A stretch of 64,000 nucleotides of DNA from Escherichia coli (GTDB lineage Bacteria > Pseudomonadota > Gammaproteobacteria > Enterobacterales > Enterobacteriaceae): the NCBI RefSeq assembly GCF_048403405.1, contig NZ_CP183129.1; one strand, given 5' to 3'. The notes under the pieces were generated by a model. It was not told the DNA's origin. It worked only from the letters and a program-made list of their open reading frames with translations, and made no database searches. A program made the translations under genes and the position numbers. Positions 4,357 through 19,045 of this stretch are shown piece by piece (position 1 is the stretch's first letter; each line of letters begins with the position of its first letter).

Positions 4357-5247
4357 ATGGATGCAAAACAAACGCGGCAGGGCGTATTACTCGCTCTTGC
4401 CGCTTATTTTATTTGGGGTATTGCGCCAGCGTACTTCAAGCTAATTTACTACGTGCCCGCCGATGAGATCCTGACGCATCGCGTGATCTGGTCGTTTTTC
4501 TTTATGGTGGTGCTGATGAGCATCTGCCGCCAGTGGTCCTATTTAAAAACGCTGATTCAGACGCCACAGAAAATTTTTATGCTGGCAGTCTCTGCCGTGC
4601 TGATTGGTGGCAACTGGCTACTGTTTATCTGGGCGGTGAACAATCACCATATGCTGGAAGCGAGCCTTGGTTACTTTATTAACCCGCTGGTGAACATTGT
4701 GCTAGGGATGATTTTCCTCGGCGAGCGATTCCGCCGGATGCAATGGCTGGCGGTGATTCTGGCGATATGTGGCGTGTTGGTTCAGTTGTGGACTTTTGGT
4801 TCACTACCGATTATCGCGCTGGGGCTGGCGTTTAGTTTTGCCTTCTACGGCCTGGTACGCAAGAAGATTGCTGTTGAAGCGCAAACCGGCATGTTAATCG
4901 AAACTATGTGGTTGCTGCCCGTGGCGGCGATTTACCTGTTTGCTATTGCCGACAGCGCAACCAGCCATATGGGGCAAAACCCGATGTCACTGAATTTACT
5001 GCTGATCGCCGCCGGGATTGTCACTACCGTACCGCTGTTGTGTTTTACTGCGGCTGCGACACGCCTGCGTCTCTCAACGTTAGGCTTTTTTCAGTACATT
5101 GGCCCGACGCTGATGTTCCTGCTGGCTGTGACGTTTTATGGTGAAAAACCGGGTGCCGATAAGATGGTGACCTTCGCCTTTATTTGGGTGGCGCTGGCAA
5201 TTTTTGTGATGGATGCGATTTATACGCAGCGTAGAACGTCCAAATAA
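4357..5247 (+). CDS. rarD: EamA/DMT-family transporter RarD
   Basis: 296-aa polytopic membrane ORF; matches RarD; SD upstream. Confidence 0.92.
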   Translation: MDAKQTRQGVLLALAAYFIWGIAPAYFKLIYYVPADEILTHRVIWSFFFMVVLMSICRQWSYLKTLIQTPQKIFMLAVSAVLIGGNWLLFIWAVNNHHMLEASLGYFINPLVNIVLGMIFLGERFRRMQWLAVILAICGVLVQLWTFGSLPIIALGLAFSFAFYGLVRKKIAVEAQTGMLIETMWLLPVAAIYLFAIADSATSHMGQNPMSLNLLLIAAGIVTTVPLLCFTAAATRLRLSTLGFFQYIGPTLMFLLAVTFYGEKPGADKMVTFAFIWVALAIFVMDAIYTQRRTSK

Positions 5248-5557
5248 AAAATAAATATATTCTGAAAAAATATGCCGACTCTTGCATGAGAGTGGGCATA
5301 TTGCCATGCTGACAGGAGACTCACATAAGGAAAGGCAGAATTTCCAGACGTCGTTGTATATTTTCATTTGCTTTAATAAATTTCATTTTTAGTAAATTCA
5401 GCATTATGTTATTAGCGATGAGCAAGACCAATCATTAACCAAGTTCTCTTCAGAATGTAATGAAAAATGTGAAGTGCATTTCTTTTTTAAAATTTTTTTA
5501 GCCTATTATTTCTTATCAAATTAACATTGCCCTTAATTATAAGAAAGGAGAATATAA

Positions 5558-6406
5558 ATGAACAACATATTAGGCTCATCAATTAATATGCCCTGTACAC
5601 TTTTCGAAACTATTACTTTATTCGATGATTTTTCTGCTGATGATATGCAATATGGGGATATGGAAGAACAAGATTTTCTCTCACTCGGCTTAAGCGACAT
5701 CTCTGCAAAAGTTGATCCTTACCGCCTCATTAAATACCATTTTCCTGGGCCGAATTCTACTTATGGTGCTTTTAGTGTTCCAACTTCTGGAACAAAAATA
5801 TCACAAAGTGAATGTATTGATATTTTATTTGCAGAAATGAAAGATCTGGCAAAAATGTTTTCCTTTTTTGGACAATACAAAACACTCATCCAGGATCTGA
5901 TTGATCATTTTAGATATGGAAATGGCAACAGTTTCCATAGCCAGGAATTGAACTTATCTTTTCATGAACGAATAAAAAAATATGATTATAATAGCCCAAT
6001 ACGTGTAATCAAAGAATGTATCGAAAATGATATTTCTTCAACACCTACGATAGGATACCGGCCTCTTCTCCTACAAAAGATTAAGATCGAATTACTTTCA
6101 TCAAGACTAAATAAATTCAATGATTTTAAAGATAATTTTAATGGCCTGGGAATCAGCATTCATGATATCTCAGCTCAAAAAATATCTCTTTTAAGTTTTC
6201 AAAAATACGCTATAGGATGGAGTGCAACAATTCATTTTGTAGCACAGGACCACTTCGGTCTTGATGTAACTGATATCAAAAACAAGACTTACAGCAAATA
6301 TAGATTTTTTCGCATATGGTTCTTTTTACAACGGCATAAAGACTTTGCTTTCAAACCTTTTTTCACCAATTTTAACACTATCGAAAGAATCGAAAATTAT
6401 CTATGA
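5558..6406 (+). CDS. Hypothetical protein, 282 aa, AT-rich accessory gene (islet gene 1); no recognisable family
   Basis: Intact ORF with AAGGAG SD 8 nt upstream of ATG; very low GC relative to flanks; no TM or signal peptide evident; stop overlaps start of next ORF. Confidence 0.7.
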   Translation: MNNILGSSINMPCTLFETITLFDDFSADDMQYGDMEEQDFLSLGLSDISAKVDPYRLIKYHFPGPNSTYGAFSVPTSGTKISQSECIDILFAEMKDLAKMFSFFGQYKTLIQDLIDHFRYGNGNSFHSQELNLSFHERIKKYDYNSPIRVIKECIENDISSTPTIGYRPLLLQKIKIELLSSRLNKFNDFKDNFNGLGISIHDISAQKISLLSFQKYAIGWSATIHFVAQDHFGLDVTDIKNKTYSKYRFFRIWFFLQRHKDFAFKPFFTNFNTIERIENYL

Positions 6407-6894
6407 AAAACAAACTCCAGAAAATTATATTATGTTTATTTCTTCTATGCTGCATCTATAATTTATGGACATTGCGTCCTGTACAGATTTTGTATACATA
6501 CTCTGATGCTGGCAATTCAGTCTTTCTGGTCGTTGATCATCTGCCATGGACTGACAGCGATAAAATAAATTGGTATCTGAAGCATCAGAATGAAATTAAA
6601 AATCAACATCCCCTACCAGAAGGTAGTTGGCATACCTGGTATGTCATTGATATCGGTAATGGCTTCACTGACTATAAAAAATATATCGAAGGGCCGTATG
6701 AAGATCTCTACTGTTTCCCGACAATTAAGAGCAATGATAATTGCATCGTGAAAAATTACTTAATGGTTATTAATGAATACCCTTATCGTAACACTCATAT
6801 TGGTATTAACGATTTTACTGAGTATCAATTAACACAAGAAAATAAAATAGAGCGAGTTTTCAATCCGCATGACTTTAAAAAAGACAATTTTTAG
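6403..6894 (+). CDS. Hypothetical protein, 163 aa, N-terminal hydrophobic anchor or signal (islet gene 2)
   Basis: ATG overlaps upstream stop (ATGA at 6403-6406); N-terminus MKNKLQKIILCLFLLCCIYNLW is hydrophobic; AT-rich; followed by hairpin 6900-6930. Confidence 0.7.
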   Translation: MKNKLQKIILCLFLLCCIYNLWTLRPVQILYTYSDAGNSVFLVVDHLPWTDSDKINWYLKHQNEIKNQHPLPEGSWHTWYVIDIGNGFTDYKKYIEGPYEDLYCFPTIKSNDNCIVKNYLMVINEYPYRNTHIGINDFTEYQLTQENKIERVFNPHDFKKDNF

Positions 6895-14612: not shown

Positions 14613-15433
14613 AGATGAATAAATCCGTCGTAGACATGTACCGCCGGGCCAGTCATATATAACGGGTGACCCGGACCTTTCCAGGCGATATCAAGACGAC
14701 CGCCGGGGAGTTCCACGCGTACTTCTTCGGCCAGCAAACCTTGCTGGATCCCTACCGCCACCGCCGCACATGCGCCGCTGCCGCAGGCCTGGGTTTCTCC
14801 TGCCCCACGCTCATAAACGCGTAAACGAATATGCTCGCGCTTAACCACTTGCATAAAACCGATATTGGCGCGCTCCGGAAAACGCTCATGGCTTTCCAGA
14901 ACAGGACCAAGCGTTTCTACCGCCGCAGTATCGACATCATCGACCTGAATCACGCAGTGCGGATTTCCCATCGACACCACGCCACATAAGATTGTCTGCT
15001 CGGCGGCGCGCATAATATAGGTCTTTTCCGCTTTGTTAGCGCGAAACGGCACAGCGGAAGGTTCGAAGTTGGGCTCGCCCATGTTTACGCGAACCAGATC
15101 ATCATCGGTGACGGTCAGAACCATCCGCCCGTTGGCGGTGCTGACGCGGATATCGCGCTTATTGGTCAGCCCTTTCAGACGCACAAAACGGGCAAAGCAG
15201 CGCGCGCCGTTGCCGCACTGCGCCACTTCACTGCCATCAGCATTGAAAATGCGATAGTGAAAATCCAGTTCAGGATCATACGGTGGCTCAACCACCAGCA
15301 GTTGGTCAAACCCTACCCCCAGGTGCCGATCCGCCAGGCGACGAATCAGCTCCGGTGAAAAAAAGACATTCTGCGTTACCGCGTCGACGACCATAAAATC
15401 GTTGCCAAGGCCATGCATTTTCGAGAACTGCAT
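14609..15433 (-). CDS. dapF: Diaminopimelate epimerase DapF
   Basis: ORF 14609..15436; start at second Met ([18 protein letters not shown]), 274 aa. Confidence 0.94.
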
Positions 15434-15469
15434 CATTTACTCCAATCACGCGGGTACAGAAACTGACTT

Positions 15470-15673
15470 TTAGTAATTCACCTGGGATGGACCATCGCCA
15501 GTGGCGCGGTCGTTTTTATCCGGCACTGTGGATTGCGTTTGCGTCTCTACCGGTTTGGTCGGCGGCGGTGCGTTTTTATCTGCAGGCGGGAAATAGAGCG
15601 GACCTTTCAGACCGCAGCCCGTCAGGCTGAAGAGAGTAAGTAATACAGTGAGTGCCTTAAACACGTTTTTCAT
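15470..15673 (-). CDS. yifL: Small lipoprotein YifL
   Basis: 67-aa ORF with lipobox LTGC (MKNVFKALTVLLTLFSLTGC). Confidence 0.85.
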   Translation of the reverse strand: MKNVFKALTVLLTLFSLTGCGLKGPLYFPPADKNAPPPTKPVETQTQSTVPDKNDRATGDGPSQVNY

Positions 15674-16138
15674 TATGGATTGCCTGTAAAGTTCATCGCT
15701 TTCTGCTTTCTATCATCGCAGGAGAAGGCGTAAAAGCAAGCGTTTAGCGACTCTTTATGAAGTCTGAAAAGTGAGGAAATGCTGCGAGTATAACGCTTAC
15801 TCGTGGCGATTTATGTTTTGCTGGTAGTTTCGTGATCGGCACCTCGCGCCAGGATGGCTTTATGCACTATCGCAATGTGGTTTGTTTGTTGGCTTGTTCG
15901 TTGTTTTTATCGTCGGCATGGGGATGTCGGCTTGATGAGCGGAACATAATATTTACCAGAAACAGGGAAAAGGCGTGGTGTATTTGCGCCCTTATGAAAA
16001 GACCAATCTTTCGCTATATAGAGACATTATTATTCCGTTGACGGATGAATCATGCCAGAACGCAGCAGACGAGCAAACTTTGAAGCCCTGACCCCATGCC
16101 GCTATACTGCCGCCATCACTTAAAAACAGGATACAACA

Positions 16139-16459
16139 ATGAACGACAGTGAATTTCATCGCCTGGCTGATCAACTGTGGCTGACCATTGAAGAGCGTCT
16201 GGACGACTGGGATGGCGACAGCGATATCGACTGTGAAATCAACGGCGGTGTACTAACCATTACCTTTGAGAACGGCAGCAAAATCATTATCAACCGCCAG
16301 GAACCGCTGCACCAGGTATGGCTGGCAACCAAACAGGGCGGCTACCATTTTGATCTGAAAGGCGATGAGTGGATTTGCGATCGTAGCGGCGAAACCTTCT
16401 GGGATTTGCTGGAACAGGCGGCAACGCAGCAAGCGGGTGAAACAGTCAGTTTCCGCTAA
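16139..16459 (+). CDS. cyaY: Frataxin homologue CyaY (iron-sulfur cluster assembly)
   Basis: 106-aa acidic ORF; matches CyaY as recalled. Confidence 0.93.
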
Positions 16460-16498
16460 GATTGCATGCCGGATAAGCCTCGCTTTCCGGCACGCTCA

Positions 16499-19045
16499 TC
16501 ACGAAAAATACTGCTGTAATAGCGGCGTGTCGTGATCCTGATTGGCAGGCGGCATGTTGCCAATCGATTTGGTGCGGAACGGAATCACCTGTTCACGACC
16601 ATCAACCTTCACAATCTGATAGAACTGCGGCAGGTTGAAGTTGATGAAGCTTGAGCCGTAGGTAAAACGGTCGTGCGATGACGAGTAGAAGCGACTGACG
16701 TCACGCACCAGCTCCTCTTTGCTGCCTTCGCAGTGGTGATACACCTCAACCCGGTTGCTTTCGTCGAGAATGTAGATATTAAAGCCATTTTCGTCTTGCG
16801 TTTCTTCGAAGAAGAACTGGATGATCCCTTCGCTGGCAAAGCCGTCCACCACCGCCGGTAATTTGACGTGATTGGTTTCAACCTGCACTGACAGGCCGTG
16901 CAGTTTGTTATGCGAAATAGCGCCATAAAACTCGATGGCATTTTCTAGTTTCTGTACCGATACATTCAGGCGCTCGAAGAATAAGCCCCAGGTTTGACCA
17001 GAAACGCGCAGCGCCTTGAAGCGCCCGGTTTCCTGGCGGGTGCTGGAAAGACGCAGTTCAATGCACTCAGAAACCAGTTGCTGCACGCGAGTACGGATTA
17101 ATCCGCGCAGATGCTGGCTGTAGCAGAAGACTTCCACGCTATCTGGCGGTGCTGCGTCCTGATGCATTTTACCGAGAATGGTTTTCAGGGCTTCGATCAT
17201 CGACTGCTCGCCGTTGAAGTGCAACGTACGCACTTCGTTCCACGAGTTGCGGTACAGCAGGTCCACGCTACCTACCAGGCAATTTTGATTCTCGCCAAAG
17301 CTGAAGACATCCAGCTTACGGAAATCGAAATGCACCACCTGATTGCGGAACGCAGCTGTCGGGTCATATTCCAGGTTAACGATAATCGCCAGATGGCGAA
17401 TTTCACACGGGCTGTAGAGCGCTTTTGGCGTCGGTGCAGGCAGGCGCAGCGGGAAATGGTGTGACACATCGGCGACCATCTCCTGCAACTTAGGCAAATC
17501 GACAATGCCGTTGCCTTTAATATACAAGCGGGTACGCGAGGTCAGCAGGCCGTTAAACCATGCCCACGCCACCAGTTTATTCAGGTAACGGTTATATTCC
17601 AGCGGCTGATGGCTGATGATCGACTCAATATTTGGCGCGCGGTTATACAGATACCAACCTGAACGGTTAGCCCGGCCCGGCGGCACATAAATAAAGGTCA
17701 GATTCGGTTCCGAGAGATCGGGCGAAATCTGCGGGTTTACCAGCGTCACTTTACCTGGCAATGCTTCAAACGCGGCGTACAGTTTACGCGTCAGCACGCC
17801 GATATCCTGCGGACTGGCGGAGACGCTAAGGTTATTGCGACGCGCAAAGCGGATCAGATTACGGTAGCTCTGCATCATCGCGTCGAGCAGCTCGTTGTGC
17901 GCCTCACGCACCTGATCAATCTTCCAGTTAGCGCGGTTATCGAGCATTGCCAGACGAGCTTCGTCCCAACCCCACTCGCTCACTAACTGGCTCAACACTG
18001 CGCGACGCCAGCCTACACAGGCGCGTTCACGGCTGAGTTTTTCGCACACTTTTAAATAGAAGCAGCGACGCACTAAATCCAGACGGGTGAAATCTTCAAT
18101 CGCCGTCAGGTATTCAGTAACACGCTCCAGCATCATGCAGTATGGATCGAGGCCAAACGATACAATCTCGCCGTCGTGCAAACGCTGTTTGATATCTTTC
18201 GCCAGCAGACGTGGGTTCGGGTATTCCCAGGAATAGGCTTCCAGCAGCAGTGTTTTCAGCACCGCTTTGTATGGGGAATCAATACTCTTGTAGAGCTGCC
18301 AAAGGCTGGCACCAAAGTACTCTTCAGCAGAAAGTGAGCTTAAACCACCGAGATCCAGCCATTCATTTGGCGTCAGCACGCCCTGCGCGTAAAGCGTCAT
18401 CACATAGTCGTCGTAATGCTCTTCTTCGTCGCACGGCACCATATTCCACAGAATACGCTTACCAGCGAGACGCACGGCGGTACGGTAAAATTCGTCAAGC
18501 AGCAGTATATGCTGGGTGGAGCCACAATCTTCGCCCCCCAGGCTGCCGCTTTCATTATGACGGAAGCGATTTTCATCAATCAGGAAGAAGCTAACTTCCA
18601 CGCCCAGCGAGGCGGCCCAGCTTTCCAGCAGACTGCATTTACGTTGTAGTAACTGGCGCTCTTCGCTATCAAGCCAGGATTGATGACAGACCCAGATATC
18701 CAGGTCAGAGGAACAACTTTGCCCTACGGACGAGGTGCTGCCCATGGTGTATACACCAGTAATTGGAAGCTCACCTTTCGGCGGATCCTGTACTGACATT
18801 CCACGATACAGTTCAAGCTCGTTCAGGTAGTGGCGTTGAGTTTCATCAGGCGTGTAAAGGCAAATGCCTTTGGGAACGTTACCATCAAGGTAACCCGGCA
18901 TTAGCGGATGGTGATAGTGCAACAATGTCGGCAGTAGACTGTAGACCTGTTGGAATGCAGGCCCCATAGCAGCAAGCGCGCGATCCACACGCAATTGATT
19001 TATGGCATCCAGTCTCTGTTTCAGAGTCTCAATATAGAGGTACAA
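16499..19045 (-). CDS. cyaA: Adenylate cyclase CyaA (class I)
   Basis: 848-aa ORF starting with TTG (revcomp of 19043-19045), as known for cyaA; N-terminus [19 protein letters not shown]. Confidence 0.95.

Follow-up and report, generated by a model that had tools for sequence, protein, structure and literature searches.

The long intergenic stretch between the divergent genes lptM (yifL) and cyaY described here for Escherichia coli has several annotated counterparts. The closest is a RefSeq/PGAP pseudogene named 'DKNYY family protein' (H7K50_RS23165 in NZ_AP022221.1; VEGS_RS22510), which has the same locus, strand and sequence and which PGAP calls incomplete, with a missing C-terminus, in genomes 90–100% identical to ours (99.4% in AP022221). 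Full-length versions are found at this site in other strains, either as the pair WP_022581283.1 and WP_000678262.1 of O145 RM9873 or as a gene triplet in YF-1. In E. coli 536 the locus is annotated as ECP_4001 and in O25b:H4 ST131 as a 'putative exported protein', a hypothetical lipoprotein of 77–87 aa, whereas in K-12 MG1655 the opposite strand of the same gap is annotated as yzcX (b3808). Our literature searches found 'DKNYY' in one unrelated paper only, 'yzcX' only in gene lists and one excludon table, and no paper on the promoters of lptM or cyaY.

The DNA analyzed here (hereafter, the window) is a stretch of 64,000 nucleotides from E. coli contig NZ_CP183129.1, to which all coordinates refer unless stated otherwise. 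We conclude with high confidence that its lptM–cyaY gap is the scar of a deletion that removed about 2.6 kb from a strain-variable pair of exported 'DKNYY' genes, and that it is bordered on each side by the normal promoter region of the neighboring gene. On this reading, the length of the gap stems from gene decay rather than from hidden regulation, and matters little in itself.

Gap size and the conserved flanks

The start codon of lptM (15470..15673, minus strand; left flank, identified from the open reading frame [ORF] list and a matching RefSeq lptM annotation), the first gene of the lptM-dapF-yigA-xerC-yigB cluster, ends at position 15673, and the ATG of cyaY (16139..16459, plus strand; right flank, from the ORF list) lies at 16139, leaving a divergent gap of 465 bp (15674–16138). 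The initial annotation had singled out this gap as unusually long, which comparison with other genomes bears out. Of 84 loci obtained from different Enterobacteriaceae species with a degenerate DNA pattern for a conserved motif of CyaY, 71 captured both genes; in 62 of these 71 species, the gap measures only 109–185 bp, with a median of 138 bp, so that the gap in the window is 3.4 times as long as the median of these 62 other species. Within the 40-kb annotated neighborhood of a 99.4%-identical genome, it ranks as the second-longest, the sole longer one being hemY–aslA (678 bp).

The ancestral parts of the gap were told apart by comparison with Salmonella, Citrobacter and Klebsiella and with a pair of Pseudocitrobacter species. 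The lptM-proximal block (15674..15750, minus strand) aligns base for base with the 138-bp gap of the former 3 genera and is near-invariant across Enterobacteriaceae, with >95% column identity over most columns in the 62 species. At the other end, the cyaY-proximal block (16101..16138, plus strand), which appears to hold the −10 element, 5′ untranslated region (UTR) and Shine–Dalgarno sequence (SD) of cyaY, aligns with the species in which the site is empty. Comparison of Pseudocitrobacter faecalis, with an empty site of 138 bp, and P. vendiensis, with an occupied site of 2,261 bp, delimits conserved flanks of 73 bp and 39 bp. The ends of the gap can thus be read as ancestral regulatory flanks of ~75 bp next to lptM and ~38 bp next to cyaY, which stand back to back in the 138-bp gap of most Enterobacteriaceae.

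Judging from its conservation, the lptM-proximal block presumably represents the promoter and leader of the lptM-dapF-yigA-xerC-yigB cluster, possibly together with a regulator site. A putative lptM promoter within it (15707..15734, minus strand) consists of a −35 element TTTACG (15734–15729), a 16-nt spacer and an extended −10 element TGaTAGAAA (15715–15707); it coincides with columns invariant among the 62 species and failed a stricter consensus scan. Across about 60 Enterobacteriaceae species, the block is better conserved than the coding sequence of lptM itself. We also considered a 7-codon upstream ORF in the lptM leader and rejected it: Salmonella conserves neither its frame nor its length, no SD precedes it, and it overlaps with the putative −10 element.

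Fused ends of two DKNYY-like genes

The remaining ~350 bp (15751–16100) correspond to a leader and 2 fused coding ends of a DKNYY gene pair. The leader (15751..15861, plus strand; 111 bp) is the sequence found upstream of gene 1 in long-form E. coli, Escherichia albertii, P. vendiensis and Superficieibacter; it is absent from genera with an empty site and was not found at the empty sites of P. faecalis and Salmonella. It contains a 20-mer, TCTTTATGAAGTCTGAAAAG (15752–15771, plus strand), conserved in the cassettes of 3 genera, as well as the SD of gene 1, AGGA (15851–15854, plus strand). Codons 1 to 52 of gene 1 follow (15862..16016, plus strand), encoding a signal-peptide-like N-terminus with a lipobox-like LSSAWGC, and match the start of the full-length gene at 98.5% identity in APEC 16-1068 and at 94% in O145 RM9873. 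Next come a junction codon TAT (16017–19, plus strand) and, through 16091, the last 23 codons of the DKNYY-like gene 2 (RDIIIPLTDESCQNAADEQTLKP; plus strand) with the stop codon TGA at 16089–91, a remnant that shares 94% identity with the 3′ end of the long-form gene 2. Consistently, BLAST places positions 1–343 of the gap on the left end of the long forms (94–98.5% identity), covering the lptM-proximal spacer, the leader and gene 1 codons 1–52, and positions 347–465 on their right end (94%), covering the last 24 codons of gene 2 and the 47 bp preceding cyaY. Thus, the gap shows nucleotide homology, with clear breakpoints, to the two outer ends of the full-length genes found at this locus, and relative to them the intact frame is lost, with ~860 codons deleted and a 1-bp frameshift at 15939/15940.

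How common each form is was assessed by searching 5,426 complete E. coli genomes by megablast with the gap as query, and 5,425 of them matched. The short form, taken as at least 80% query coverage, occurs in 3,836 of the genomes, and 1,584 (29%) contain the 2,570 bp that the window lacks, in every case on the chromosome; the genomes with partial matches to the gap are those carrying long forms, in which 2 or 3 intact genes lie between lptM and cyaY. The two-gene form encodes a 492-aa DKNYY-family protein followed by a 441-aa protein (O145 RM9873, APEC 16-1068), and in the three-gene form (YF-1, E21845), a gene for a 184-aa DUF3304 protein stands in front of this pair. The 2 genes of the pair are paralogous (36% identity, E = 3e-62), each encoding a signal-peptide-like N-terminus. 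With 29% of genomes in the long form, 71% in the scar form and an old junction common to Escherichia species, the locus offers a handy presence/absence marker.

The same exact site is occupied in some Escherichia and a few other genera, and the ~350 bp between the flanks are what is left there of an accessory cassette after an old internal deletion of ~2.57 kb, by which gene 1 was fused after codon 52, with the frame kept, to the last 24 codons of gene 2. Every scar allele examined, namely those of the window type, the K-12 type, E. whittamii and Escherichia sp. E1V33, has one junction, CTTTCGCTA[C/T]A[C/T]AGAGA, and the K-12-type scar is ~95% identical to the scars of the latter 2. The simplest reading of a junction shared by three Escherichia species is a single old deletion, the product of which has spread or persisted. 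Independent, recurrent deletions were considered and rejected, given that the junction offers no useful microhomology and is identical in all alleles. A search of the gap for repeats turned up nothing beyond chance repeats of 10–12 nt, with neither a REP/ERIC-type element nor an IS end among them.

Comparison of the window with K-12 reveals a strongly uneven pattern of divergence. The gene 1 remnant differs by 19.4% and the gene 2 remnant by 10.7%, compared with 1–4% for the flanking genes and 0–1.3% for the ancestral blocks (1 of 77 positions in the lptM-proximal and 0 of 38 in the cyaY-proximal block). The coding remnants are thus under relaxed constraint relative to their surroundings, as expected of unconstrained remnant DNA enclosed by constrained promoters. 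A difference of 19% in gene 1 despite a shared junction suggests that, if there was a single deletion, scars must later have recombined with long-form alleles; in its gene 1 remnant, the window type resembles the long-form allele found today in APEC.

The predicted cyaY promoter spans the boundary between remnant and ancestral DNA. A promoter-like site, TTGAAG-17-TATACT (16080..16108, plus strand), was the sole consensus-level match for cyaY in the promoter/terminator scan; its −35 element lies within the last codons of the gene 2 remnant and its −10 element in ancestral sequence, where TATACT (16103–16108) is conserved in all genera compared. If the site is used, the −35 element of E. coli cyaY derives from the 3′ end of a defunct gene and illustrates, on a small scale, how insertion and deletion bring about promoter turnover.

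Several observations bear on the diversity of the cassette. In three-gene forms, the DUF3304 gene is flanked on each side by a copy of the leader together with the first ~62 nt of the DKNYY gene (positions 5001–6430 of locus L006 and 3846–5264 of L007), and Escherichia sp. MOD1-EC7003 (L075) has a 5-kb gap holding a larger array with 2 copies of the leader. Such a layout suggests that the array is modular and that recombination between its repeated 5′ modules has shuffled it. E. albertii (L013, 8462–10486) and P. vendiensis (L077, 3349–5376) each carry a single gene for a 674-aa DKNYY protein at the same lptM–cyaY site. The right flank of P. vendiensis is more similar to that of E. coli than is the flank of P. 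faecalis, suggesting transfer by homologous recombination through the flanking genes.

Searches with the parent proteins returned little about their family or function. Against Pfam PF13644 (DKNYY family), the 2 parents score 24.2 and 24.8 bits, just under the gathering cut-off of 25, and the ORF in the window has no match; the DKNYY name is the one given by PGAP, so that the parents count as borderline members of the family. The DUF3304 protein similarly scores 21 against a Pfam cut-off of 22, and reaches 18.3 bits (E = 0.0017) with NCBIfam NF053804, the type VI secretion system (T6SS) immunity protein Tli1a, for which the cut-off is 110. The 2 DKNYY proteins have no NCBIfam match, the parent genes have no PADLOC match, and a sequence search of the PDB with the parent proteins gave nothing better than E = 0.1. 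An AlphaFold2 model made in this search for a function, for which 11 sequences were aligned, is all-beta (mean pLDDT 62), and a Foldseek search of the PDB with this model yielded nothing at E ≤ 0.001, with TM-scores of about 0.1 and a vague resemblance to beta-propellers. The tblastn matches to 'plasmids' were confined to chromosomes mislabelled as plasmids and to short N-terminal stretches.

Two observations concern strain variation nearby. In NZ_CM195844.1 (locus L002, in which the gap matches at 100%), there are 2 identical copies of cyaY 579 bp apart (1966–2865), which represent either a tandem duplication or an assembly artefact. In the 99.4%-identical genome, the rarD–corA interval (L096, 9887–11223) holds an annotated accessory pair, a YPO3983 family protein and a DUF943 protein, near which yigE is frameshifted; the pair and yigE may be other strain-variable spots of the region.

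Open reading frames within the gap

The initial annotation found no convincing ORF in the gap and set aside a 69-aa ORF (15832..16041, plus strand) for its odd composition and its lack of an SD. Indeed, nothing in the gap is intact and this ORF is probably non-functional, but it is the frameshifted remnant of a real gene, the true start of which, the ATG at 15862, is preceded by the AGGA described above. Alignment of alleles revealed that a single C is missing from the window between 15939 and 15940 (CC to C), which shifts the frame after ...CRLDE and leads to the stop at 16041. The 69-aa ORF looks odd and lacks an SD because it is read from an upstream GTG at 15832, first in the frame of gene 1 and then, past the 1-bp deletion, in the shifted frame.

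Without this mutation, the fusion of gene 1 to gene 2 is in frame. It is intact, at 76–77 aa, in strains WP8-S17-ESBL-08, SK1144 and KN12-1, where the product reads MHYRNVVCLLACSLFLSSAWGCRLDEPEHNIYQKQGKGVVYLRPYEKTNLSLY followed directly by RDIIIPLTD...QTLKP. An exact-sequence look-up found intact chimeric ORFs of 76–87 aa in >1000 contigs, including those of E. coli 536 (ECP_4001) and O25b:H4 ST131, and the exact 69-aa product in 11 contigs only, including those of E. coli MS 198-1 and 908616. The K-12 allele is far more decayed: it is interrupted by an in-frame stop and a frameshift and has a deletion of 6 bp. The internal deletion generated a chimeric ORF of ~77 aa that stayed intact in many strains, decayed heavily in K-12 and was apparently inactivated in the window by the loss of 1 bp. 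An un-shifted version of the exact window allele exists as well (P0005, 25 contigs). The change at 15939/15940 is a very recent mutation or possibly a sequencing error.

It is conceivable that the chimeric ORF of 76–87 aa is a functional small exported lipoprotein that was born from the deletion and only just lost by the window strain. Besides being intact in >1000 contigs, where source labels read 'lipoprotein' or 'putative exported protein', it retains the native SD, ATG and leader, and its residues are well conserved among 23 variants. However, the window carries a frameshifted copy, and the ORF is disrupted at several points in K-12, E. whittamii and Escherichia sp. E1V33; the C-terminal part differs among variants by several non-synonymous changes and a codon indel, a recent common origin can explain the conservation among intact alleles, and the lipobox (A-W-G-C) is atypical. 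The window itself retains the signal-like N-terminus and LSSAWG-C, but its reading frame is lost 4 codons past the Cys. We consider a functional lipoprotein quite improbable. A broader scenario, to which we likewise give little credence, treats the lptM–cyaY spacer as a recombination hot spot with a modular array of exported DKNYY/DUF3304 genes, in which each module opens with the same leader and signal-peptide cassette; presence/absence forms, among them one ancient scar allele, would persist across Escherichia, with strains of the B2/ST131 type keeping the 77-aa ORF as a new lipoprotein and the window strain having just lost the putative small lipoprotein.

The minus strand deserves separate mention, because RefSeq annotates in K-12 a yzcX of 161 aa, which lies partly antisense to cyaY and reaches into the gap, raising the possibility that a YzcX protein is encoded there. 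The homologous stretch of the window (15860..16348, minus strand), however, is not an intact ORF: read from 16348 to 15860, it contains 3 in-frame stops, one of them within the part antisense to cyaY. Moreover, half of yzcX is the antisense of the pseudogene remnants, and in long-form strains its ORF would run into different sequence. A genuine yzcX gene is thus extremely improbable, and the annotation, apparently spurious, is best seen as a chance ORF specific to K-12. Neither the 69-aa ORF nor K-12 yzcX should be treated as a gene.

Regulatory and RNA readings of the extra length

The initial annotation had also proposed that the gap holds extended promoter or regulatory sequence for the dapF operon and cyaY, or an unannotated small RNA. 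The first proposal holds in so far as the probable promoter regions of the lptM operon and cyaY coincide with the 2 short end blocks conserved across genera, but the extra length consists of the leader and the fused coding ends of the deleted DKNYY pair. A regulatory role for part of that length is nevertheless compatible with the scar: the retained leader could act as a second, distal cyaY promoter with a long 5′ UTR, or provide upstream elements for the lptM promoter. Across Escherichia, the diversity of the leader (15751–15861) is 0.03 compared with 0.08–0.14 at third codon positions of lptM and cyaY, that is, 2.7–4.7 times lower than at synonymous sites of the flanking genes; the ungapped figure for the gene 2 remnant, inflated by codon indels, was left out of this comparison. 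In addition, the 20-mer at the start of the leader, conserved in the cassettes of three genera, abuts the lptM −35 region, and a second promoter-like site lies on the minus strand (16058–16029). Within E. coli, however, diversity of the leader (0.023) equals that of lptM third codon positions (0.020), which speaks for no clear constraint and against a distal promoter. Furthermore, the leader contains no consensus sigma-70 promoter on the plus strand, the promoter/terminator scan of the region gave counts at chance level, and the genera with an empty 138-bp site express both genes without the cassette leader. Residual constraint on the leader is thus hinted at across Escherichia and not clear within E. 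coli, and we regard a regulatory function of the leader as unlikely.

The proposal of a small RNA, or of a structured cis-regulatory RNA, fared worse. In its favor, a hairpin followed by a T-run in the leader (15780..15818, plus strand), detected in the promoter/terminator scan, resembles an intrinsic terminator, and in at least half of 58 K-12 RNA-seq samples, cyaY/yzcX was classed as a 'divergent excludon' (PMC12288877), a call which implies read coverage of both strands around the gap. The excludon call is nearly automatic and non-specific, however, because the yzcX annotation already overlaps cyaY. The best matches in an Rfam scan of positions 15000–17000 (E up to 10) score 9–17 bits, compared with gathering scores of 35–100, and folds of the whole region are no more stable than those of shuffled sequences on either strand (z = +0.37 and +0.35). 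An alignment fold of the cassette leader has a covariation term of −0.07, essentially none, and the hairpin stem is broken without compensation in the alleles of L006, L013 (E. albertii) and L075 and absent in other genera. No consensus promoter precedes the hairpin on the plus strand, and most of the extra sequence is fast-evolving coding remnant. With 2 terminator-like matches found and 1.3 expected by chance, the hairpin is probably a chance match, and an RNA gene in the gap appears highly improbable. Outside the gap, the short convergent spacer between cyaY and cyaA (16460–16498) contains a GC-rich hairpin, GCCGGATAAGCC...GGCTTTCCGGC, which is probably a shared terminator and which underlies a far sub-threshold Rfam match to Ysr276 (13 bits against a gathering score of 100).

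We therefore return to a deletion scar bordered by the promoter regions of its neighbors. As far as can be judged from sequence comparison, the only working elements in the gap today would be the 2 flanking promoters: the ~75-bp flank would carry the promoter and 5′ UTR of lptM-dapF-yigA-xerC-yigB, and the ~38-bp flank the −10 element, 5′ UTR and SD of cyaY. The middle of the gap is best described as non-functional remnant DNA.

The feature is, then, an ordinary deletion scar, already known as a RefSeq-annotated pseudogene, and what the present analysis adds emerges from comparison with the described counterparts. The PGAP pseudogene, which sits right under the 69-aa ORF, covers the gene 1 part only, omitting both the 3′ end of gene 2 (the downstream 75 bp) and the in-frame fusion, and the window allele carries an extra 1-bp frameshift relative to it. 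ECP_4001 of E. coli 536 and its ST131 equivalent are the same chimeric ORF at the same locus, intact in those strains and frameshifted after codon 26 in the window, whereas yzcX of K-12 occupies the same gap on the opposite strand and has no ORF in the window. The pair of O145 RM9873, or the triplet of YF-1, represents the parent genes of the window remnant, with which they share the leader, SD, start codon, first 52 and last 24 codons; the parents are intact at 492 and 441 aa, whereas the window is without the internal 2.57 kb. New here are the exact partition of the gap, the in-frame fusion of 2 genes, the frameshift behind the 69-aa ORF, the junction common to the scar alleles and the ancestral gap of 138 bp.
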